A DNA stretch of 62,690 nt, the filler included. It is 15 parts of 15 records of this genome, joined end to end, with 100 filler letters (N's around TTAATTAATTAA, not from the genome) between each part and the next. Parts side by side here need not be neighbours in the genome. Positions count along the whole stretch, not along the records: positions 18,585 to 22,889 come from SRR7504441_28276; 14 more parts are not named here. One strand, 5' to 3'. Of this stretch, positions 5,086 through 28,754 are shown in pieces. The stretch's first letter is position 1; each line of letters starts with the position of its first letter. Below the pieces are notes generated by a model. That model was given only the letters and a program-made list of their open reading frames with translations. It had not been told where the DNA came from and did no database searches. The translations under genes were made by a program, and so were the position numbers.

Positions 5086-5185
5086 NNNNNNNNNNNNNNN
5101 NNNNNNNNNNNNNNNNNNNNNNNNNNNNNTTAATTAATTAANNNNNNNNNNNNNNNNNNNNNNNNNNNNNNNNNNNNNNNNNNNN
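5086..5185. other. Artificial contig linker (44N-TTAATTAATTAA-44N). Also at 9854-9953, 13181-13280, 18485-18584, 22890-22989, 28655-28754, 32248-32347, 36070-36169, 39338-39437, 44576-44675, 48561-48660, 51691-51790, 55975-56074, 59586-59685
   Basis: Identical 100-nt spacer with stops in all six frames, present 14 times. Confidence 0.99.
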
Positions 5186-5612: not shown

Positions 5613-8600
5613 TCAGAACGGAATGCTCATGTCTTCATCTTGGAGGTTGCAAGCAGCAGCGACTGACTGCACTGAAGCCGGCACTTGCAGCTCGAACCAG
5701 TCGGTCTTCCCACGATCAGCGCGCGCAGCATAGATCGCCTCCTTGACCGCAAAGAACGCCGAGATGGCCAGCGGCATCGCCGGCTCCGCGCACGCCTGTA
5801 GGCCGACTCAGGCCAGCCTGGATTAGTTTAGTTCCTTGGAGCCGAGGATCGAGTTGCGTGAGGTGTTGCGGTGTCCCTCGAGCAGTGACACGTTGAGTTT
5901 GATTGGGATGTCCAGAGCCGACGGGATCTTGTAGTTCCAGCTGCCCAAGTTAAGCTGCTCACCCGCAGCCGACCAGAGCATCTGCCGACACCAGGTTTGG
6001 CCATTCAGCACGCCTCCGGGCACCTCCTCGGTGAGCAGGTAGCCGAGCGCCATCACGTAGCCTCCCTCGAGCTGCCCAATCGCAATGTCTGGATTCAGCG
6101 GCTGGCCGAGGTCCATCACGATGTCAGTCTGGAGGATCTGCACCTGAAACAGCCTCTATCAATATACCGGTCTGACCCTGGTCGGTACCTCGCCAGTGAG
6201 GACGTCCACTTCGGCCTCGGTGGCTGCAACTCCGTACGTGGCATAAGCGTTCAAGTTGTCGTCGGTCTTGTTGTCATACCTACGCCTCGCGTGTCAGACA
6301 CAGTTTAAACTAGAGCTATATACCAGCCCGAAGCCGACAGCGGCTCGCCGGCAGTCAGCGCCGCAGTCACTTGATCCGCGAACGACTGGCCGGGCTTCTG
6401 ATACTTGGCCAGCGTGCTCGCAAGCGAAGCGCACGCCTGCCGGACTGCTTCGGCAGTGCATTCGGTTGTGCCACTGCCGCCAGTCCCGGTGTTGTTGGGT
6501 GTGGTGGCCGTGTTGGTGTCTTGGATGATCACAGCACTGAGAGGTACTCCAAGTGTGCCAGCAGCCACCTGAGCCGCCACTGTGTTGAGCCCCTGCCCAA
6601 TCTCGCATCCGCCGTGCGACACGGCCACAGAGCCATCGGCGTAGATGTTGACGAGCGCGCCGGACTTGTAGAATGGCAGGCCCATCCCGTACTTGACCGG
6701 CTGGACGGCGAGCCCACGCTTGCGCCACTTGTTAGCAGCGTTGAATTGAAGCACGGTCTGCCTGCGGGCGGCCAGCTGGGCCTGTTGCTCGAGCTGGGAG
6801 AGCAACTGTGGGATGGTCCAGTCAAAGTCCTGAGTCCCGATGTGGTCCCCGTACGGGGTGGTCTGGCCACTCTGGTACAGATTGGCTTGCTGCACCTGCC
6901 AGTGCGGGAGCCCCACTGCGCGGGCAGCGCGCTCGATCACCACCTCGTGGATCAGCTGCGACTGGAGCACGCCCGGGGCTCGCTGCGAGGTGAAGTGCAC
7001 GTGATTCGAAGTGACCGGCTTGCACTGACAGTCGTAGCTAGGCGTGTAGTACACGTTGTCCGAAAACTGGACAGCCATGGTGCCATCACCCACACACTCG
7101 CCCACAAACGGTCCGCAGTCCATAGAAAGGGCCATGCTCAGCTGGTTTATCTTGCCGGTGCTGTCGCAACTGGCCGAGTACTTGGTGCACTCGATCGGCT
7201 CCCGGCCTCCAGTACTTCTCATATCCAGCACCTGCACCCACCGGCTTGCCCCAGACAGCAAGCGCGCACACCCGCTCATTCTGCACTGCCACTGGCCGTC
7301 CTGCCACCGGCTCACACAGACCCGCTCCAGGCCAGCACCGTGCTTGATTGCTGCGACAGCAGCCGCGGCCGCAGCTGGTGCCTGTCGATTGAGCTTTCCC
7401 CCAAACGCGCCACCCGCTCGGCGCGTGGTCACAGTCACTTTGTGCTGAGGCAGGCCGACCACCGCAGCCACGGCGTGGCAGGTGTAGGCAGGGTCCTGGG
7501 TCGAGCAGCTCAGCTGCAGCCGGCCCTCATTCGGCACAGCCAACACTGATTGCGTTTCCATGTACCTGCCAGACGCTGGCCGCTCGACCCGGCTGGCCGC
7601 ACCAGTGGCTCTGTCCGCCAGTGGCCAGCGAGCCTTCAAAGCTGTGCGCTGACTCGCCGGGTGGCTGCTCGCCGCTGGCCACTCTGACAGTCCCGTCGTG
7701 ATCCGGCTGGTCCAGCTGGGCCTTGAGCACAGGATGCACCCGCCGCCGGACCAGCCCCTGCCCGGACGGCGTCAGCCCCGGCCGCTGCTGGGCGTACCCC
7801 TGTCCTCGCCAGCGTGTCGATGGTCTCGCGGATGGGCTGCGGGCTGGGTTGCCGGCCCGGATGACTCGAGTAGCTGATCTGTACGGCTTGGGCAGCTTCA
7901 CGAGCACCGGCCTGCCGCACTGATCATGCCCTGGTTGGACGGCCGAGTGCGAGCACCTGGCTGTTGGCCAGCACCAGTGCGACCGCGGCCCCCTGGCTCC
8001 AAGAGACGTCACCAGGCCCGAAGAAGAGTGGCTCCTTGAACGGCAGCTGATTTCGCTCGGCCGGCAAGTCGCTGGCGGTGAGCACGTCCACCACTCCGGG
8101 CATCCGGAGCGCTTGGTCGGTCTGAACCGCCTGGACGGTCCCACCGGCCTGCTCGGTCACGGCCAGGGCACCAAATAGCGCGCCTTCGGGCAGCTGATCG
8201 CTTGGGTAGATGGCTTCGCCAGCCGCCTGCACAAGGTGAGAGCACGTTCAGGGAGGCCTGACTGGCCTGCTCGAGCGCTGATAGCTTGATCACCGGCTGG
8301 CCGATCGGACCGGTCACCGGCTGGAACTGCTGTTTGCCCGACGAAACGGGGCGGTCCTCGGCTGCAGCAAATCCCTCTATGGCAGACTGATACCGTGACG
8401 GGAGCGGCCCGCCGGCAGCCAGGAGCCACTTGTACAAGAAGCCCTTGGCCAGCCGGAGCCGGTACTCTGTCGAGCTGCGCGGGTCGGTGTTTGGACCGTT
8501 GGCCGACACATCTCTCTCGATAGCTTTGAGTGCGGATGCCAGGCTTGCGGAGCTGACTGGCTGGCCAGCGAGAGTAGCCTCGGTCTGAGTGGCCCGGAGC

Positions 8601-9830
8601 AGCCCCCGGTCGAGCACTCCGCCGATGAACAGTCGGCAGGAGGCCAGTTTGTGCTGAGGGTCCAGGCAGGCGCTCATGGCCATATTGACAATTGCGTGTG
8701 AGTTGACGTGACGCTGTGCTGTCTTCTCAGACCGGAACAACGTGCCAGTCAGTGGCGGGACAAGGCCCTCGAGCACTAGGCTGTACTTGGGGCAGCCATC
8801 CGCCACCAGCCGCTCCACTGGCACGCTCTCTGTGTGCTCAGCAGAGCTGGCCAGCGTGATCGTCACGCCGGCAGCAGCAAAGACTGTTGCGATGTCTGAG
8901 CAGAATGCAGGGTGGCTCGAAGCCAGGACCAGGTTGCCGGCCCAGCTGCCCACGCTCCGGACCTGCTGATTAGCTACCCGTAGCAGGTGCCGACGGACAG
9001 CCTTCTGCCCTGCACTCCCCTGGTCCAGCTCTGCAATCAGCCGCTCCAGGGAGACCCCTCCCCCCACCCGCAGACTGCCATCCGGCTGGCGCGAGACCGC
9101 CTGCAGCTCCGTCAGGTACGACAGGTCCACAGTCTGCCCGGTGCTCGCCCCGAGCGGCCCGTAATACTTTGCCACGCCGATCGAGGTGTTGGCCTGCACC
9201 AGCCGGATAGGCTGCCCTGCCTTCTGGGCGGCGGACATGATCGGCCACAGCTGGGCCAATTGGCGGGGCTGCCAGAGCTCGAGCTCGCCGTTCGAGTACT
9301 TGACCAGCTGGCTCGAGCCAACTGCGCTGGGCTGCGGCTCCACTGGTGGCTGCGGCAGATCGAGCAATCCTTCCATCCCCTCGAGGATAGGGCGGTAGCC
9401 AGTGCATCTGCAGAGGTTGCCGTCGCAGGCCTGTTGGAGCTGGGCCTTGGTCGGAGCCTCGCCTTGCTGGAGCAGGCTCCAGATGTTCATAACCCAGCCG
9501 GGTGAGCAGTAGCCACATTGACTGCCGTTCCCGAGGGCCAGCGCCTTTTGTACTGGATGGTACCCTGCCCGGGCTCCGCCGAGGCCTTCCACCGTCATCA
9601 GATGTTTGCCGGAGACGCTCACCAGCAGCCGCAGGCACGAGTTGATCCCCTTCCACCCGGTCTTACCGTCGTCCGACATTGCCACTGTGCACGCCCCGCA
9701 GCCGCCCTGCCCCGGCTCGGCCATTCACCGCTGGCGGGCACCTCGTTGCAGCCTTGTTTGGTACCGGTGAGCCGGGCCCCCTCCCTCAGCCAGTGCACCA
9801 GCAGTGTGCTCGGCTGCCCCCCAGCTCGCC
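5613..9830 (-). CDS. Molybdo-flavoenzyme of the aldehyde oxidase/xanthine dehydrogenase family, about 10 introns, 5'-truncated
   Basis: 2Fe-2S motifs GTKQGCNE|GGCGACTV, QCGYCSPG and GNLCRCTGY; FAD region; Moco motifs GGAFGGK, RAPG, EIGQGLNT, DIAIGQLEGG and GSK|ACAEP. RAPG and the lack of Glu after GGK (GGKLN) resemble aldehyde oxidases more than XDH. Confidence 0.93.
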
Positions 9831-18182: not shown

Positions 18183-18723
18183 GTTTGCTGTCTGGGTGCG
18201 ATGGAGTGCCGTTACAATGACTCTGGGGCGACGATCTACATCAAACCCCTTTTTATGTACCCTTGTATTCGTTTGTAATTGAAGTTTAAATCCACTATTC
18301 GTATTACAATACTAAGATCGATTGTATGTGTATTCGGTACCACGGAAACATGCTGCTTTGGTTTAATCAATCAGGATTCTTTAGTTCCATTATGATAGTA
18401 TGCGTTGTGCACCTTGATGATGGCATTACTGACATCATGCATGTCCTGTGGCTCCATTTTGGGAAACAACGGGATTGTGATGATNNNNNNNNNNNNNNNN
18501 NNNNNNNNNNNNNNNNNNNNNNNNNNNNTTAATTAATTAANNNNNNNNNNNNNNNNNNNNNNNNNNNNNNNNNNNNNNNNNNNNCTGCGATAAAATTGTC
18601 AAAATCTAACTTTTCATTTGCAGCTACTAGATCTATACTAGCTGCAGGTACGAAGCTGTACCCGTACGTATTCAAGTACAGCTGTACTCGTAAATGAGGC
18701 ATTTCAAAATTCAAGGAGCCGCC

Positions 18724-20402
18724 ATGCACTCTGCGTTGCGCCGGGGTCTGTGCTCGGCAAGCAGCGCAGCCCGTTGCGAGGTGACCAGCTACCTCAACAG
18801 CCTGGCCGTCCGCCGGCTCGGCCGCGAGCTGCCTCGCGAGCACCGACAGCTGCTGGCCGAGCGGCTCGAGGCCAACTGGTACTCGACCGTTGACGAAGTC
18901 CGAGCCCTGTCGGAGGCAGACGCGGTGCAGCTCGGGTAACCTAGCCGACTCGGGGGGGCGCATTAATCGGGTTGGACCGGCAGGCTGCCGCTCCGGCTGC
19001 TGTCCGTGCTGCAGGAGGAGCCCAGCGCCGCAGCAGCTGCGACCGAACCCGCACCGAAGGCCCCGCCGCCTACTGCGCCCGAGCCAGCCGCCGCCCGAAC
19101 AGCGCCGCCCGAACGTGCCCCGCCGCGGAAGCGTGGGTGTGGCACGGCGGCCAACGTGCGGGTGACGAAGCGGGAGCGGGGCAAGCCGTACGGGCTTACG
19201 GTACAGCAGCTGACCCCGGAGCTGGCAGCTGAGCTGGACAGACTTCGGACTTTTCTAACCAAGCGGTTCTATGGCCAACAGGAGCCCCGGATGCGCCCGG
19301 CCACGGCCGACAAGCACATTGCGCATGCCCGGGCAATGCTCGGCTGGTTGCACTTGCACAGAGACGCGCCGCTAGATCAACTCTGCCTTAAGCAGCTGAT
19401 ACCATCCAGCGGGCGGGATGGCGTCCAGACCTCGTTCGATTTCCTCCAGTTCCTAGTGGACACCAGGGGGGCCGTGCCCAATACGGAGCTGGTCCACTTG
19501 CGCTCCTGTGTTCAAATATGCAAATTCTTGTATCACCAAGAGTCCTCTGCAGACCCTTCGCAGGGCGATAAACCGTACCAGGACATCCAGGCCATTCGCG
19601 AGCTCCGGAAGCTCGCCAACGATGCCAAAATGCGCGCCAAAGTGGCCCCTGGGGTGTCGGACGATGGTCTCAAGTGGCTGGCTTGGCCAGAGTACCTGGA
19701 GGCAGTTGAGAAGCTCCGAATGGAGTGTGCCCCGAGGCTTGCCAATGGCGCTCTCCGGCCGCGGACGGCGGTGGCGTATTCGTATCAGGTCTATCTGATC
19801 TTCTCGATCTTGGCTTGCATCCCGGACCGGCAGCGGACGCTGCGTGAACTAGAGATCGGCAAGACATTAATGCACGAGAGCGGCAAGTGGGTGATCAGGC
19901 ACGGCCCAGAGGATTACAAGACCGGCAAAGACTACGGCGAACGGCCGCCGCTTGTAATTGCTGAGAGTGTCTACCCGGAGCTTGAGGCGAGTGGCCGGTG
20001 TGGTGTTTGCTGAGCCTGATCAGGAATGGATCAACGTATGGAGAGCGGAGCTCAACCCGACTCACGGGTATCTCTTCACACGGAAGAACGGAGCCCCCCC
20101 GACATCGGCGGATTTTATCTGGAAACTGTTCACCACTGCCGCATTCCGAGTGACCGGCAAGAAGACGAATCCGTGCGCCTGGCCATTGGGTCTGGATAAT
20201 TTGTGGGGACAGGCATCTGATCCGTGACATGATTGTGACACATCTGCGGAACACGAATGCCAGCGAGCGGGAGCTGGAGGCGCTAGCGATATACATGGGA
20301 CACAGCCTTGCACAACAGCGGGGTTCATATGATAGACGCTCGAAAGAGCAAAAAGTTGCGCCTGCAATCGACTTGCTACGAACAATCAATGCACAAGCTT
20401 AG
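18724..20402 (+). CDS. Tyrosine recombinase (lambda-integrase fold) family protein, 3 introns (18936-18983, 19987-20023, 20173-20212)
   Basis: After splicing: IPDRQRTLREL (R), EDYKTGKDYG (K), NP|HLIRDMIVT (HxxR), YMGHS (H), SYDRR (Y). An alternative in-frame ATG lies at 18694. Confidence 0.85.
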
Positions 20403-20687
20403 CACAAGCTTAGCACAAGCTCGCTAGTTCAATAATCAAGGAGCGTTTCTAGAGCGTTTCGCTCAAGGTTGTCGTCATTTACAATGTACTAGTCAGTAAA
20501 TACTGTCGTGTGCTGAACACCGAGGTCCCGAACGCAGCCATGGAAACAAGACTTTGTGTCTAATAATTATATTATCCATTTATTAATTGTTGATTGTGGA
20601 GTCGTATACTATATTCCCAAATGCAAAGCACGCTGAGTTCGACAACACAAGCTTACCTTCACGGTGGACCCGCTAGGCTCTAAAAGA

Positions 20688-22532
20688 TTATCCTAGGCAC
20701 GACGTTATGCCAGGCTGGATAAACTTTTCGTACGCTTCAATGTAGTGCATGCAATCGCCCTGGCACATTGAGCAGTCAGCCACACTGCCCACGCAGCCAC
20801 TGACCTTGGTGCGGCGAATGGTGATATTTGTAAGGTCGTCTGATGGCACGAGCCCGAATGCGACCTCAAGCGGCATTGTGCTCCCTTGCCGTGGGCTGAA
20901 ACAGACTTTAATCTGCGTGCCCAGAAGCTTTCGCTCCTCGTCATCCGCCTGTGCCCTGCTGAGCGCACGCGCCAAAGACCACAGCGGACCGCCACACTCT
21001 CGGCGCCGTTGTCCATGAACCATCGCTCGAGCCGAGCCACTAATTCCTCCTCCGGCACCCGACACACAAACTGCCAGACGGTCAGTGGACCCGGTGAGTC
21101 AATCGCAGGCTGTCACCTGGGCCGTCGGCTTGATGGAAAGCCCCCAGCCCTGGGCAGGATTCCGTGGGGCGGCTACTTCGGTGGCCGCGGCCGGAGCCGG
21201 CGGGGCGAGGCCTTCGATTGATCGATATACTGGCTCCTGAGAAGCCGGCTGAGTCCGGAGAGAACAGGCAGACCAACCTCAAACTGGTTGAATTCGAGGT
21301 CGCCTTGATCCATTATATCGCTAGCCAAGTCCCGGTACACCCGCTCTTCCTCGTCGTGCAGGCACTCGTCCATCGCTGCCAGGCTCACTGGCATTGGGAG
21401 CGCATTGTTCAGGTTGAACCACGGATGTCTCCGGATCTGCACTCCTGCTCAGCGCGCGGCAGCAGGGAATGGGGACCTCGGGTATGGTGATCCGTTTCTT
21501 GGGCTCGACCTCCCACATCCGGAGCAGCAAGTCGACCAACTCTGGTGAGAAACTAACTGGGAACTGGAACTGCTTTTGTACCAACGACACAAACAGCTCG
21601 CAGCGCGCTGTCGCCTCCGTGAAGGGGAAGGCACCGGCGGTCATGATGTAAAGGATCACACCAGCGCTCCTGCAGCCCCGCCCCCAGCAGTGAGCACGCC
21701 AGCTTGCCCCAGCCTAGCGCGCACCAGATGTCAATCGGCGGACCCATGTACTCTGCAGAGCTGCCCATGATCTCGGGAGCAGCGTACTTCTCACTGCCAC
21801 AGTGCGTCTTGAGCATCGTCTCGGGCCCCACAATCGCATTCGACAGGCCAAAGTCTGAGATCTTCAGGATTTCCTGCGACAGGTGCTCAGGCGGCGCGCG
21901 CAGGCCGGCCCTCACGTCTTTGGCGAGCAGCAAGTTCTCCGGCTTCAAATCCCTGGGGGCGGCAACCCGTCAGACCAATCTCTGGCCCGGCAGCCACCGG
22001 TGCACAATGTGCTTCTGATGGCAGTACTCGAGCCCGTCGATGACTTGGTTAAAGAAGTGGCACGCCGTCTCCTCCGAGAATCCGCCGTCGCCAACGATCT
22101 TGTCGAAAAGATCGCCGCCGGCAGCCAGCTCCAGCACTAGGTACAGGTTCTGGTCGTCCTCGTGGATGTCGATCAGCTTGAGCTGCCCACGGCGGCTCAG
22201 CCCCCCCGAGCCAGCTCTCTCTCACCACGTTGCTGTGCCCGTTCAGAGTGCGCATGAAGGCCACCTGCCGGCCCGGGTCAGGCCTGCGGGTGTTGGCGGC
22301 AGGGCGCCTCTTTCTGCAGATGCTCCACCTCCTTGGGGCTCCGGCCGACCAGGGCGGCTTTGGCAATGATCTTCACCGCGAACCTGTGCCCGTTGTCGTC
22401 GACCGCCTCCTTCACCTGGACCGGGCTCGAGGGGTAGCCGGCCAGGACAGTGGCCGGCACCTTGCCGAACATGCCCTCCCCGATCTTGGGCCCGAGCTCG
22501 TACATATCCTTCACCTTAAACCCCTGCGCCAT
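20688..22532 (-). CDS. Ser/Thr protein kinase (CAMK group, SNF1/CIPK-like) with a C-terminal KA1-like region, about 10 introns
   Basis: IGEGMFGK|VK, FAVKII, LELAAGGDLF, VH R|DLKPEN, ISDFGLS, THCGSEKYAAPE, IDIW|SAG. Confidence 0.93.
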
Positions 22533-23128
22533 TGCCTTGGCGGGGGCTGTGTGTTGATGCCCAGCTCCACGTGCTTTCCAAATAAAGACGTGTGATGATC
22601 AGACAACCGTAGGAGAGGCCTGACAAGGACAAGTTCATCCGGCGGGTCGGTCGGGCGCCCTTGCCCAAGCACCGGTCTCTAGGTCTACCTCAGAATCCTC
22701 GTGTGATGGGCGTAGCTAGCTCCCAGATGGTTCGACACGCGATCGATGTTTAGGTTGGATGAAATCGTAGAGTCCAGTGAGTTTACACTCGTGCTATTGT
22801 AGTTAGAGCCCCTAGCAAGAACGTTGGGCCCGCTTAAGGCTTAGTTACTAGGGATGGATTACTGTAAGCCCTCATAGGGTGCAATACAGNNNNNNNNNNN
22901 NNNNNNNNNNNNNNNNNNNNNNNNNNNNNNNNNTTAATTAATTAANNNNNNNNNNNNNNNNNNNNNNNNNNNNNNNNNNNNNNNNNNNNCAGCTTCTAAT
23001 TTGGGATTCAGCGAACCTGCCAGTCCAGCCGTGTTGCTCGCCTTTTATTTTATTTTCTCTCGGCACTCGATTTCAGCGGCCTCGAGCAGCAGCTAGCGCT
23101 CATCTCCCAGGCCACCGAGCTTACCGCG

Positions 23129-25080: not shown

Positions 25081-28000
25081 CTACAACATGAATGTCGCTT
25101 CCTTCGACCCACGCGGTCCAGAGGTGGGGGCGGCATCATCCGGCTTTTGGGCCAGCTGGTTTCGCTGGATAACCACATTCTCCCTCGGGCCCATGCTTGG
25201 CACTTGTTTCCCCCGGAACCAAGGGCCTGCCTGCTTTGCAAATCCAGGCTTGGCCTGGTTCCAGTCATATCTAAAGTCATTCTCAGACGACTTGGCGCCA
25301 AGCTCAGTCCTTCCAAGTACAATGTCCTGAGCGTTGGCCACGTCTTGGTACTCATTTTCTGGGTCGGCCACAGCACGCTTCACCTGGGAGCCCTCTTTAG
25401 TGAGCCAGCTCTCGAGTTGGACGTTTTCGAAAAGCGAATCTCGTCTCTGCGAGCCAGGGGTGCGGATGGCCTCCACCAGTCCAGGCCGGAAGACAGTGAG
25501 ATATGATTTGTAGGTGAACTTTGGGAGCATGCACACTACTATAGTGATGGGCACGTTGAACCAGAACCTGGTGACTGCCGAAACTATGTACATGCCCATG
25601 TATCCATCCGCGTTGCCATCTACGTTGTTGAGGATTGAGGCTGGCAGGGCAGTGTACGCGTATGCAAAGACAAACCAGAGGGCAATCACTGCCCAGTATG
25701 CCCAGTGGTGGTACTTGGTGAAGTGAAGCGTGTCGATTGCCAGCCGGAAAGTCACAATCACAATCAGACTGGTCATGCAAATCCAGCCCAAATCGATCAT
25801 GCCCAGACTTTTGCCGTCGTTGCTCACTGCGTTGGCCATGTAGAAGTAACTGCAGACGTAGATCATCGCAGCAGCCCAAGCGCCATCGAGACACCAGATC
25901 CCGAGCGTTGTATAGTCAAACAACTCGTTTGTGTGACCCTTCTTGTACAGTGAAGGGTTGACAAGTGAGTTCTCTGCAGAGACATCTTGCTCAAAGAAGC
26001 CGATGACCAGCACTCCAAATGATGAAAAGATGATATTGTACAGTGTGGCAACCATATTGTCGTAGAATAGAACTCCAGAAAATCCAGCAGTAAACGACTG
26101 AAAGACAAGAGTGTAGCCGTAGATGATACTCTTGTAGAAGAAGTAGTTGATAATCAAGGCGAGCCTGTAATACAGCCACCGGCCATGCACGAGCATCAGC
26201 CTGAGCAAATATTGAAATTGAGTAATCGCAAAATCTGAATTGTTCACAGCTTGCGTGCCCTCGAGCCCCGCAATTCCAATGCCAACATGTGCCTCCTTAA
26301 TCATCGACACGTCATTGGCACCGTCACCAATTGACAGAGTGATCTGTCCAAGTTCAGTCTTCAGCAGGTGGGTGATTTCCTTCTTTTGGACTGGCTGCAG
26401 CCGGCAGGCCACAACGCTCTTGAAATCCTTTGCCAGTTGAATAAACTGCAATTGGCACTTGCGCATTGCCAAGAGATCATCGGAGATGTTATGCGGGGTT
26501 GGATCGCCGCACACCTTTGCCTTCAGACCATCTCTGGCTTGCTCGGCAGCCTCGATTTGGAACAGCTCTGTTTCAGTGATACATCCGAATCCCATCTGCT
26601 TGAGAGCAGCAGCTGGGACAACGAGCCCGAGGCGCTTGTGTTCCATCATGTCGACGGGCGAGAAAGCAACATAACGATCCTGACACGCACCCGTCATTGG
26701 GAGCCGAATTGACGAGGACGCCCACCTGAGCCCGGCTGTCTAGCTGGTTGAAGGATTCCTGGCAAATGTCGGTGAGCCAGCTGAATTCTTCGTCCTCTGC
26801 CGCCTGTACCAACAGATAATTAGACACACAGGAAGAAGGGGTGGCGTATCTGTACCTCGCCTGCCGATGTTGCACGGTTCAGGCCGTCTGCTGATGTGCA
26901 TTGCCGGTACCAGCGGGTGTCAGATACGATCTGCTTGCGGATCTGCAGTGTGTGTCAAGCGCACAGCCTTGATCCATTCTAGCCGAGCAGCCAGGGCTCT
27001 TGAAAATCTTAGTGGCAAGCTACCGGGCACATCTTGCGGCCAGTAGCGTAGTAGTCCGTTATTGCCTGAAGCTGACACATGTGCCTTGCCACCAAGCGCT
27101 GTGCATCGCTCATGCCTGCAATCACAGTCAAGCTGTGGCTGCAAGCAGGCAAGCAAGCAGAGCGGCTGGTTGCTAAGCTACTCCTGCTTCTTAAGCAATA
27201 GTTAGGCCTGATCAGGCAGCGGCTCAGGGATGGCGTTGGGCACCGGCAGGATCAAGGACGGTTGCATCTGGATCTGGATCAGTGAACGGCCACACAGTCT
27301 GTCCCCCAATCAGCACCCCAACCATGCTGGTCTAAACCTATACTATCAGCCCTAGGGTAGCACGATGGTCACCTGGTCCATTTTGACTGGCCCGAGGTAG
27401 ACCAGGTCCATCTTGGGCCACGGCCTGAGCAGCTGGCACGCGTGGCCAATCATGACTGCGGTCTCCACTTTATCGCCGGTGCACATCCACGTGTGCACTC
27501 CGGAGTCGGCTAGGGTGGCCAGCACATGTCCCACGTTCTCCTGCAGCCGGTCTTCAATCCCGACCGCGCCCAGCACATGAAGCCCGCCCCCGTGTGCCAG
27601 CCCGACCTCTGCCTGATCACGAAGCGCCTGCATTTGAGCCTCGATTTGCTCCTTGGGCGACATACTCGAGTACTTTCTTGGGCTAACAGCAAGCGTGCGC
27701 GGAGTGAAGGAGCCAGCATCGGGAGCCTTCAAAGTCTGTGGCATTTTGCCTGATTTCTCGGCTTGGAGGATCATTTCCCACTTGGGAGCCCAATTGTCGA
27801 ACTCCTCCTGACTCATTTCACGGCTGGCGTACATCATTGTCCGCAGACCGGAGGCTGCCATACTTGTGACATGATCCATCGTGTGCTTGAGCCGTTCCGA
27901 CGTATCGCCCGACTTCTCAAGCATCTCAATGATGACTGAGTCGGCACCCTTGAGGAACACTTTCAACGAGCCGTCCGGCATTCTCACCACCACACCGGCC

Positions 28001-28654
28001 CGCTTGAGGTGCGAAGTGAACTTGAGACTGTACAGTACCTGGAAGCTGTGCTGCTGGAACTGCATTGGGTGGCTGGGAACCAGCGTCTGCTGCCGCTGGA
28101 TGACCTTAGTCACGTGCCGGCTCAGCTCCATCGCCGGCTCGACCGGCAGTCCGGCCACCACGTCTTGTGAAGTCTGCTCGGACCGGCCGCACGCGATGTT
28201 GACTTTAAACTCCTTGCCCTTGTCGTTGGACTCGAGCGCGGCGAATTCGAACCCTAGATGCCGGGCCGCGAGCACCAGAGCCGAGTCGTCCGGGCTCTGC
28301 GCCGAGTAGACGATTTTGTGCTCCGAACTCTCGTCGTGCAGCGGGACGACCTCGTGGCAGAGCGACATGGCCAGCAGAAGGTCCTCGGCGTGCTGCCGCT
28401 CGGTCTCGGTCAGTTTGCCGTTGTTCTCGGACTTGAGCCAGGCGTAGTCACTGATCCTCCGATCGTAAAAGAGGAAGTCTCGCATCTGAGTCTGTGAAGA
28501 TTCAAACAGCCTTGGGCTGGCGGGGGGCGACATGTTTGGATTCTCCTGCTTCTTGATCTCGAGGTCCACTTCGGTCATGCCTTCCCCGTACATTTCGGGG
28601 CCGCCAGTTGAGAGCTTGAGCAGGGCCATCTTGTTCTGGGTGAGCGTGCCGGTC
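25081..28654 (-). CDS. P4-type phospholipid-flipping ATPase, 5'-truncated, multi-exon
   Basis: TGTLTQNKM at the contig edge, YSAQSPDD, LKGADS, GLRTM, IEDRLQ, WMCTGDKVETA, VACRLQPVQK, IGDGANDVSMI, YFFYKS and C-terminal TMs. Confidence 0.95.
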
Positions 28655-28754
28655 NNNNNNNNNNNNNNNNNNNNNNNNNNNNNNNNNNNNNNNNNNNNTT
28701 AATTAATTAANNNNNNNNNNNNNNNNNNNNNNNNNNNNNNNNNNNNNNNNNNNN

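Follow-up and report, generated by a model that had tools for sequence, protein, structure and literature searches.

A nuclear-encoded tyrosine recombinase family of cyanobacterial affinity, viewed from a marine picoeukaryote gene, and its proposed task on organelle DNA

Organelle genomes are thought to be maintained by homologous recombination together with junction resolvases. A literature search returned no site-specific recombinase that is encoded in the nucleus and imported into plastids or mitochondria; the only case described was TyrC, which is encoded in the plastid. A gene found in a stretch of 62.7 kb of DNA (hereafter the window, meaning the whole stretch that was analyzed) raises the question of whether such an enzyme exists. 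The gene occupies positions 18724-20402 of the plus strand and encodes a tyrosine recombinase, and an earlier note on this DNA had proposed that it is a domesticated, possibly mitochondrion-targeted enzyme. Here, the gene is placed in a large eukaryotic recombinase family that is uncharacterised so far. The gene is probably a nuclear host gene of cyanobacterial descent, whose product would be imported into an organelle and would act there as a site-specific recombinase, with resolution of organelle DNA multimers as its proposed function.

A spliced and expressed recombinase gene

The coding sequence extends from the ATG at 18724 to the TAG at 20400-20402 and consists of four exons and three introns, all on the plus strand, which upon splicing yield a protein of 517 amino acids. 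Exon 1 (18724-18935) encodes residues 1-70 and two bases of Gly71, which cover a putative presequence and helices one to four of a module with a predicted SAM fold. It is followed by intron 1 (18936-18983), a GT-AG intron of 48 nt that is in frame and contains stop codons. Exon 2 (18984-19986; residues 71-405) contributes the last helix of the module, a Pro/Ala linker, the core-binding domain and the first half of the catalytic domain. Intron 2 (19987-20023) measures 37 nt and is of the GC-AG type (GCGAGT...ATCAG), this being the sole in-frame reading, as no GT donor leaves the frame open. Exon 3 (20024-20172; residues 406-455), intron 3 (20173-20212; 40 nt, GT-AG) and exon 4 (20213-20402; residues 455-517 and the TAG stop) complete the gene.

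The earlier note had described the three introns as host-style, and this description was borne out. Alignment of the spliced protein with 14 homologues ran end to end and was free of gaps at all three junctions. The joint 20172 to 20213, produced by removal of intron 3, was present in polyA metatranscriptome contigs from two studies, X7 and X12, and record 5 of X12 additionally lacks intron 2 (37 nt), at a joint that has just 18 nt on one side; DNA run X1 continues unspliced through intron 3. RNA contigs do not bridge intron 1 or most of exon 2, and intron 1 rests on the gap-free alignment. The joints in RNA indicate that the gene is expressed and that at least two of the three introns are removed. 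The introns can be regarded as host-style because a Ser/Thr kinase gene on the same contig (21553-22598, minus strand) has GT-AG introns that are similarly short (45 and 55 nt), and the donor of one of them, GTGCGC, is also that of intron 3 of the recombinase gene. The GC content at third codon positions (GC3) is 0.725 for the recombinase, within the 0.57-0.82 found for other open reading frames (ORFs) of the window. Combined, these results identify an expressed, intron-containing nuclear gene. An 11-nt tandem repeat of about 2.8 units (20391-20421, plus strand) spans its stop codon; RNA contig X7 misses one unit at 20391, leaving the end of the protein unchanged, and the number of units thus differs between strains.

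After splicing, the catalytic set R-K-HxxR-H-Y is complete, as the earlier note had stated, and consists of R353 (19828-19830), K383 (19918-19920), H456 and R459 (20214-20225), H485 (20301-20303) and Y494 (20328-20330), in canonical order and spacing, with a His-to-Tyr spacing of 9 equal to that of XerD. The six residues were kept in 54-62 of 63 and in 71-82 of 84 eukaryotic rows, the remainder being mostly gaps. Pfam searches with full-length homologues returned Phage_integrase only (PF00589, 18-26 bits in six of seven, against a cut-off of 27.1), and the four exons translated separately gave no Pfam match. A profile built from 47 family members retrieved XerD as its best match in the PDB (E 2.8e-4), over the catalytic C-terminal half. 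XerC and XerD belong to the same superfamily and have a task analogous to the one proposed here, but they are set apart by scores far under the family cut-offs: the NCBIfam equivalog models for XerC/XerD gave 15-29 bits, against cut-offs of 280-335. Neither a dif-like site nor a partner of the FtsK kind is in evidence for the window recombinase.

The fold was modelled on a homologue, P0007, which is 47% identical to the window protein over exon 2, using the family alignment. The model (predicted local distance difference test, pLDDT, 89.8) has two domains, core-binding and catalytic, arranged as in Cre and Xer proteins. Its best structural match was Cre of phage/plasmid P1, with E 1e-6 and TMt 0.65 in Foldseek and, in VIA-align, Z 15.8 (root-mean-square deviation, rmsd, 3.8; 292 residues aligned). 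XerA (15.5), XerH (15.2) and IntI (15.1), which share the build of Cre, were tied with it, so that no one of the four is singled out. The best structural matches were recombinases; matches to a non-recombinase fold, which the earlier note had named as a ground for refuting its reading, did not come first. Cre resembles the window protein in its two-domain architecture and in the R-K-H-R-H-Y set; the two differ in that their identity is 13-18% and in that the window protein adds a presequence, the SAM-fold module, a linker, nuclear encoding and introns. Judged from its residues and from the model of its homologue, the window protein is an intact, simple tyrosine recombinase of the Cre/Xer/IntI type.

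Cyanobacterial affinity of the eukaryotic family

A search with exon 2, in which 8000 candidates were scored, identified 79 relatives, the best of them 57% identical. They included green algae (Elliptochloris, Chlorella, Raphidocelis, Chromochloris, Tetraselmis and Chlamydomonas species, with Micractinium added by a later search), Saprolegniales (Saprolegnia, Achlya, Thraustotheca and Aphanomyces), two diatoms and Balamuthia. No streptophyte, animal or fungus was named among these 79, nor was any match named TyrC. When a family profile was run against 1.84 billion representative proteins, 4480, 1545 and 494 matches were obtained at E<=1e-3, 1e-10 and 1e-30, respectively. A literature search found no description of the nuclear family or of its cyanobacterial relatives, and the locus tags of six named orthologues went unmentioned in the main texts searched.

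Outside eukaryotes, relatives were found in cyanobacteria. Among 185,579 prokaryotic species, 15 loci were recovered, all titled cyanobacteria and 24-44% identical over the core-binding and catalytic domains, and tblastn of plasmids returned 24 records, 22 of them with a printed genus, in every case cyanobacterial; several strains had more than one such plasmid. By contrast, the 13 pattern matches on viral contigs (IMG/VR) contained no relative, and phage records gave no match. The closest non-eukaryotic relatives found are cyanobacterial proteins, chromosomal as well as plasmid-borne, annotated 'tyrosine-type recombinase/integrase', for instance those of Nostoc sp. HK-01 plasmid6 and of Geminocystis NIES-3709 plasmids. 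They share with the eukaryotic family the motifs PDRQRT, DYKTG and NPH..R, and differ from it in having a cyanobacteria-specific N-terminal domain, about 120 residues long, where the eukaryotic proteins have the presequence and the SAM-fold module, and in that some carry Gln or Lys for the first His of HxxR. At this position, 43 cyanobacterial rows had His in 36, Lys in four and Gln in three, Gln being the residue of L001 (4458-6152). A relative on each of several plasmids is often seen in one cyanobacterium, as in Geminocystis NIES-3709, Annamia dubia and Nostoc HK-01, a pattern that would suit a role in plasmid maintenance. The neighbours of the plasmid-borne genes, including L016 and L017, were hypothetical proteins only and hence uninformative. 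Two nearly identical relatives, L009 and L010 (tree distance 0.06-0.08), come from two metagenome-assembled genomes, one labelled Coleofasciculaceae and the other Oscillatoriophycideae; the latter also has a distant paralogue, L006.

Phylogenies were reconstructed with FastTree (171 rows) and with IQ-TREE (LG+C20, quick search; 70 rows) from rows that we selected among the matches, and were rooted at the midpoint, the root itself not being inferred. In both, eukaryotic rows formed one side of a single branch, with support of 99 in FastTree and, for 49 rows, 100 in IQ-TREE (Shimodaira-Hasegawa-like approximate likelihood ratio test, SH-aLRT). Under midpoint rooting, the eukaryotic clade nests among cyanobacterial rows, and its sister clade (87) includes a Nostoc plasmid protein. 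Within the eukaryotic part, the tree order of Saprolegniales is that of the species, Saprolegniales and a diatom-containing clade are joined at 98, picoeukaryote loci form a clade at 95, Chlorella pairs with Micractinium and Raphidocelis pairs with Chromochloris. At the base, the window protein shares a polytomy with Balamuthia, P0006 and P0104. The eukaryotic family, as far as its sequences tell, is of cyanobacterial affinity. Balamuthia is a plastid-less amoeba, and its copy, P0008, is 52% identical to the window protein, which suggests horizontal transfer or contamination. Descent from a Crypton, a DIRS element or a Polinton-like virus, the known kinds of source that the earlier note had brought up, was not supported, as the non-eukaryotic relatives found were all cyanobacterial and none was viral or from a phage, in a comparison that covered prokaryotic, plasmid, viral and phage collections.

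Presequence-like extension, SAM-fold module and putative targeting

Targeting was judged by the composition of N-termini and by motif counts only. The first 18 codons of the window gene (18724-18777, plus strand) form a presequence-like extension that precedes the conserved module and contains three basic and no acidic residues, in agreement with the earlier description of an N-terminus without acidic residues. Across the family, 33 of 42 listed proteins had 13-180 extra residues before the module. Basic residues outnumbered acidic ones in 31 of these 33 extensions, a count made with no cytosolic control set, and several stretches of 50-70 residues were free of acidic residues.

The character of the extensions varied with lineage. 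In oomycetes, N-termini are 18-29 residues long, with Arg-rich starts and the look of mitochondrial presequences, and proteins of the picoeukaryote loci start with MRR... In the clade that contains the diatoms (57 rows), a hydrophobic, signal-like region was present in 28 of 52 proteins starting with Met, versus 2 of 42 green-type and 4 of 43 cyanobacterial proteins, and in many cases it was followed by a cleavage motif made of a small residue and Phe or Trp. A signal followed by such a motif is the pattern of the bipartite plastid signals of complex plastids. The N-termini of green-algal members look like transit peptides. These extensions support targeting to organelles across the family, and to go by their appearance the plastid is no less likely than the mitochondrion to be the destination. 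The mitochondrial destination suggested by the earlier note is supported in so far as it concerned an organelle, and fits the oomycete proteins, but the plastid-type signals of the diatom clade leave the mitochondrion itself unsettled.

Next to the extension lies a module of about 65 residues that is conserved among green-algal and oomycete members and that had been called SAM-like by eye. At the level of sequence this was not sustained: the Pfam profiles SAM_1 and SAM_2 matched neither exon 1 nor module-bearing homologues, alignment of the module by hhalign to the genuine SAM domain of P0006 and P0230 gave a probability of 1.3%, and leads for the module from a protein atlas were all below 0.9, with SAM families at 0.78-0.82. 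At the level of fold the resemblance stood. The module of an intronless relative at a homologous locus, folded alone, gave a model of five helices (pLDDT 83.8). With this isolated module, the first 14 rows returned by Foldseek were all SAM domains, with probabilities of 0.66-0.97 but E values of 0.17-0.8. VIA, whose search with the whole protein had scarcely probed the module, returned SAM domains as the best rows for it, for example that of EphA5 with Z 7.2 (rmsd 2.4; 64 of 69 residues aligned), although Z below 8 can reflect a common arrangement. Domains that bind DNA and have a similar fold (Rad51 N-terminal, NusA AR2/alpha-CTD-type) scored Z 5.6-6.5. According to these models, the module is a five-helix SAM fold, its likeness to SAM domains lying in the fold and not in the sequence. 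Two members of one lineage, P0006 and P0230, carry a genuine SAM_1/SAM_2 domain at the position of the module. A further family member, P0151 (1145 amino acids), is fused behind a DnaJ domain.

Host inheritance, rival explanations and the proposed role

In JGI metagenomes, 325 relatives were detected and 80 loci were kept, of which 79 consisted of one uninterrupted match, many on contigs of up to 233 kb. In 11 of 22 representative loci that we picked from the 80, with GC contents of 0.46-0.65, the same TCP-1 chaperonin gene was head to head with the recombinase gene. The TCP-1 neighbours were 79-92% identical between loci and their recombinases 42-60%. Rab, DGAT, Dcp2 and threonine aldolase were further neighbours at the metagenome loci, and other lineages had conserved flanks of their own. 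The ratio of non-synonymous to synonymous substitution rates (dN/dS, Nei-Gojobori), a check that the earlier note had suggested, was 0.07-0.38 in all 10 pairs tried. The window contains one copy of the gene, and metagenome contigs show one conserved recombinase locus per lineage. Synteny, dN/dS and uninterrupted matches together point to a stably inherited gene under selection, and support the view that the family behaves as a host gene and not as an active transposon. The earlier note's idea of a non-transposon host gene is upheld by these observations, by the host-like GC3 and introns of the window gene, by its intact active site and by a tree that follows organismal groups.

The reading that we consider probable can be put as a sequence of steps. 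The host would be an uncultured marine picoeukaryote in which the gene is nuclear and single-copy, the copy count being that of the window. Its product would be composed, in order, of a short import presequence, the five-helix SAM-fold module, a Pro/Ala linker, the core-binding domain and the catalytic domain. The family would have arisen once from cyanobacterial recombinases, many of them plasmid-borne, and would have been inherited thereafter as an ordinary host gene. Import would be into the plastid in the diatom clade, into the mitochondrion in oomycetes, and into either or both in green algae and in the present organism. Once in the organelle, the enzyme would carry out site-specific recombination on organelle DNA, and its likeliest task would be to convert the multimers produced by homologous recombination back to monomers, as Cre does for P1 and Xer for chromosomes; plasmid dimer resolution is the natural task of Cre. 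The analysis showed the gene model with its expression and splicing, the active-site residues, the fold, the family and its affinity to cyanobacteria, the synteny and the purifying selection; what we infer is the targeting, for which only the appearance of the N-termini speaks, along with the substrate and the role in multimer resolution.

This role is suggested because the build of the protein is Cre-like, because many of its cyanobacterial relatives are plasmid-borne, and because the same idea has been voiced for TyrC, which is encoded in the plastids of Heterosigma akashiwo and Kryptoperidinium foliaceum and is proposed to convert multimers of the plastid genome to monomers (PMC2873285). 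TyrC, compared here by description only, differs from the window protein in being plastid-encoded and in its small size, the catalytic Tyr being residue 285.

Several points weigh against the scheme. The N-terminal statistics are crude and come without cytosolic protein controls; the extension of the window protein is just 18 residues long; and several homologues begin right at the module, which may reflect truncated gene models or real forms that are not targeted. The multimer-resolution role would draw on analogy with Cre and Xer and on the plasmid location of the cyanobacterial relatives only. Because of its position in the basal polytomy, the lineage of the window protein could have gained the gene horizontally. 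Last, the host-gene account leaves unexplained a repeat bracket, described below, that is the expected residue of the insertion of a circle by a recombinase.

A more far-reaching form of the same proposal is possible, if doubtful: that algal and oomycete organelle genomes have a native system of the Cre/lox kind. A cyanobacterial plasmid recombinase would have moved once to the nucleus and gained the SAM-fold module together with plastid, mitochondrial or dual signals, and it would resolve multimers, or flip inverted-repeat isomers, at a conserved site in the DNA of the plastid, the mitochondrion or both. That plastid-less Saprolegniales, which group with the diatom clade, have kept the gene would then mean that the ancestor of stramenopiles already had it, as a gene of cyanobacterial descent, and that its product was redirected to the mitochondrion later.

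Among the explanations that depart from organelle import by a host gene, one takes the window copy to be, or to have recently been, a minimal mobile unit, Crypton-like or cassette-like: a 1.7-kb circle that inserted itself and left its crossover sequence as a flanking repeat. The earlier note had reported no terminal repeats, and this proved wrong. A 17-nt direct repeat brackets the coding sequence on the plus strand, with an upstream copy at 18703-18719, ending 4 nt before the ATG, and a downstream copy at 20428-20444, starting 26 nt after the stop and carrying two mismatches. The copies are 15/17 identical, no other match with up to three mismatches exists in the window (chance expectation 0.07), and 15/17 was not reached when the 100-nt flanks were shuffled 1000 times. 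The repeat may be a trace of recombinase-mediated insertion, an element of the untranslated regions or a product of chance. Record 6 of RNA contig X7 stops at 20444, the last base of the downstream copy. The location of the gene on a short contig beside an assembly gap and its basal polytomy beside plastid-less Balamuthia would also suit a mobile unit, as would the features of Cryptons, which comprise nothing but a recombinase gene, sometimes with introns, and are of low copy number; CryptonS elements, found in oomycetes and a diatom, have short direct repeats at their termini (5-6 bp, in most cases TATGG) and a conserved C-terminal region (PMC3212892). The window gene resembles them in being a eukaryotic gene for a recombinase only, with introns and, as far as the window shows, at low copy.

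Against this, no like bracket was seen at 23 homologous loci, where the best repeats were 10-14/17 and the lowest shuffle counts 3, 5 and 6 of 300. If the mobile unit were bounded by the two repeats, it would contain a leader of 4 nt but lack a promoter. TATGG was not found at the ends of the gene, and no CryptonS-type C-terminal region was present, the protein stopping 23 residues past the catalytic Tyr. Introns and GC3 are host-like, and the family shows synteny, purifying selection and putative targeting peptides; conserved synteny, putative targeting peptides and cyanobacterial relatives set it apart from Cryptons, by description and not by sequence comparison. A mobile unit is thus an unlikely explanation of the window copy.

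A second alternative retains import and changes the ancestor: the gene would be a recombinase domesticated from a Crypton, a DIRS element or a Polinton-like virus and directed to the mitochondrion, as the earlier note had it. The short, Arg-rich N-termini of mitochondrial look in oomycete orthologues and picoeukaryote loci would agree with this, and an extension of 18 residues is more in keeping with a mitochondrial presequence than with a long transit peptide; moreover, eukaryotic tyrosine recombinases are mostly borne by transposons (PMC3212892). Such an origin is nevertheless improbable, given that the nearest outgroup was cyanobacterial and not a transposon or a virus (in the comparison delimited above), that Pfam, with matches reported up to E<=0.1, listed Phage_integrase but not DUF3504 for the homologues, and that members of the diatom clade have bipartite signals of the plastid type. 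Crypton-derived DUF3504 genes have lost the active site, whereas that of the window protein is intact.

Least probable is a nuclear or cytosolic host protein, in which the SAM-fold module would serve oligomerisation or DNA binding in nuclear chromatin and the basic N-termini would not be import signals: SAM domains are typical of such eukaryotic proteins and are bona fide in P0006 and P0230, some members have no N-terminal extension and the gene is kept in plastid-less Balamuthia, but signal-like starts are specific to one clade (28/52 against 2/42 and 4/43), acidic residues are scarce in 31 of 33 extensions, and cyanobacterial ancestry fits organelle genomes.

The surroundings of the gene add little to these arguments. 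The window is made up of 15 contigs of about 3-5.5 kb each, joined by 14 linkers of the form N...TTAATTAATTAA...N, in which TTAATTAATTAA, flanked by runs of N, lies at 5130, 9898, 13225, 18529, 22934, 28699, 32292, 36114, 39382, 44620, 48605, 51735, 56019 and 59630; genes on opposite sides of a linker are therefore not true neighbours. The recombinase gene lies on a contig of 4.3 kb (18588-22886) that holds only this gene, with 135 nt upstream, and the convergent kinase gene downstream. No reverse transcriptase, RNase H or gag, as would mark DIRS or Ngaro elements, was found on this contig, and the neighbours at homologous loci were housekeeping genes. The argument from neighbourhood in the earlier note was thus right in naming the kinase as the neighbour, but is weak for a contig so short, with 135 nt upstream, in a window of joined contigs. 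A contig from an oligo-dT library has a poly(T) loose end at 20571, which places the polyA site of the kinase gene, on the minus strand, about 170 nt away from the stop codon of the recombinase. Elsewhere in the window, pieces of a xanthine dehydrogenase gene (6305-9724) and of a P4-type flippase gene (25081-28698; ORF 25081-26739) lie on the minus strand. The best named relatives of the flippase ORF are land-plant ALA3 proteins, at 35-41% identity, which is uninformative for taxonomic placement; at such a distance from its nearest named relatives, the organism must be remote from anything named in the protein collection. Sequencing runs that matched the window each covered a small share of it (at most 0.11), and all were marine or aquatic metagenomes, which is not taken as evidence on habitat or strain.

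As a conserved, intact and widespread family of imported enzymes, these recombinases would be candidates for the resolution of circular organelle DNA multimers and for the interconversion of isomers. They would likewise be a candidate natural site-specific tool for the engineering of organelle genomes in algae. Finally, their affinity to recombinases of cyanobacterial plasmids, together with their presence in oomycetes, bears on the debate over 'algal genes' in stramenopiles that lack plastids.

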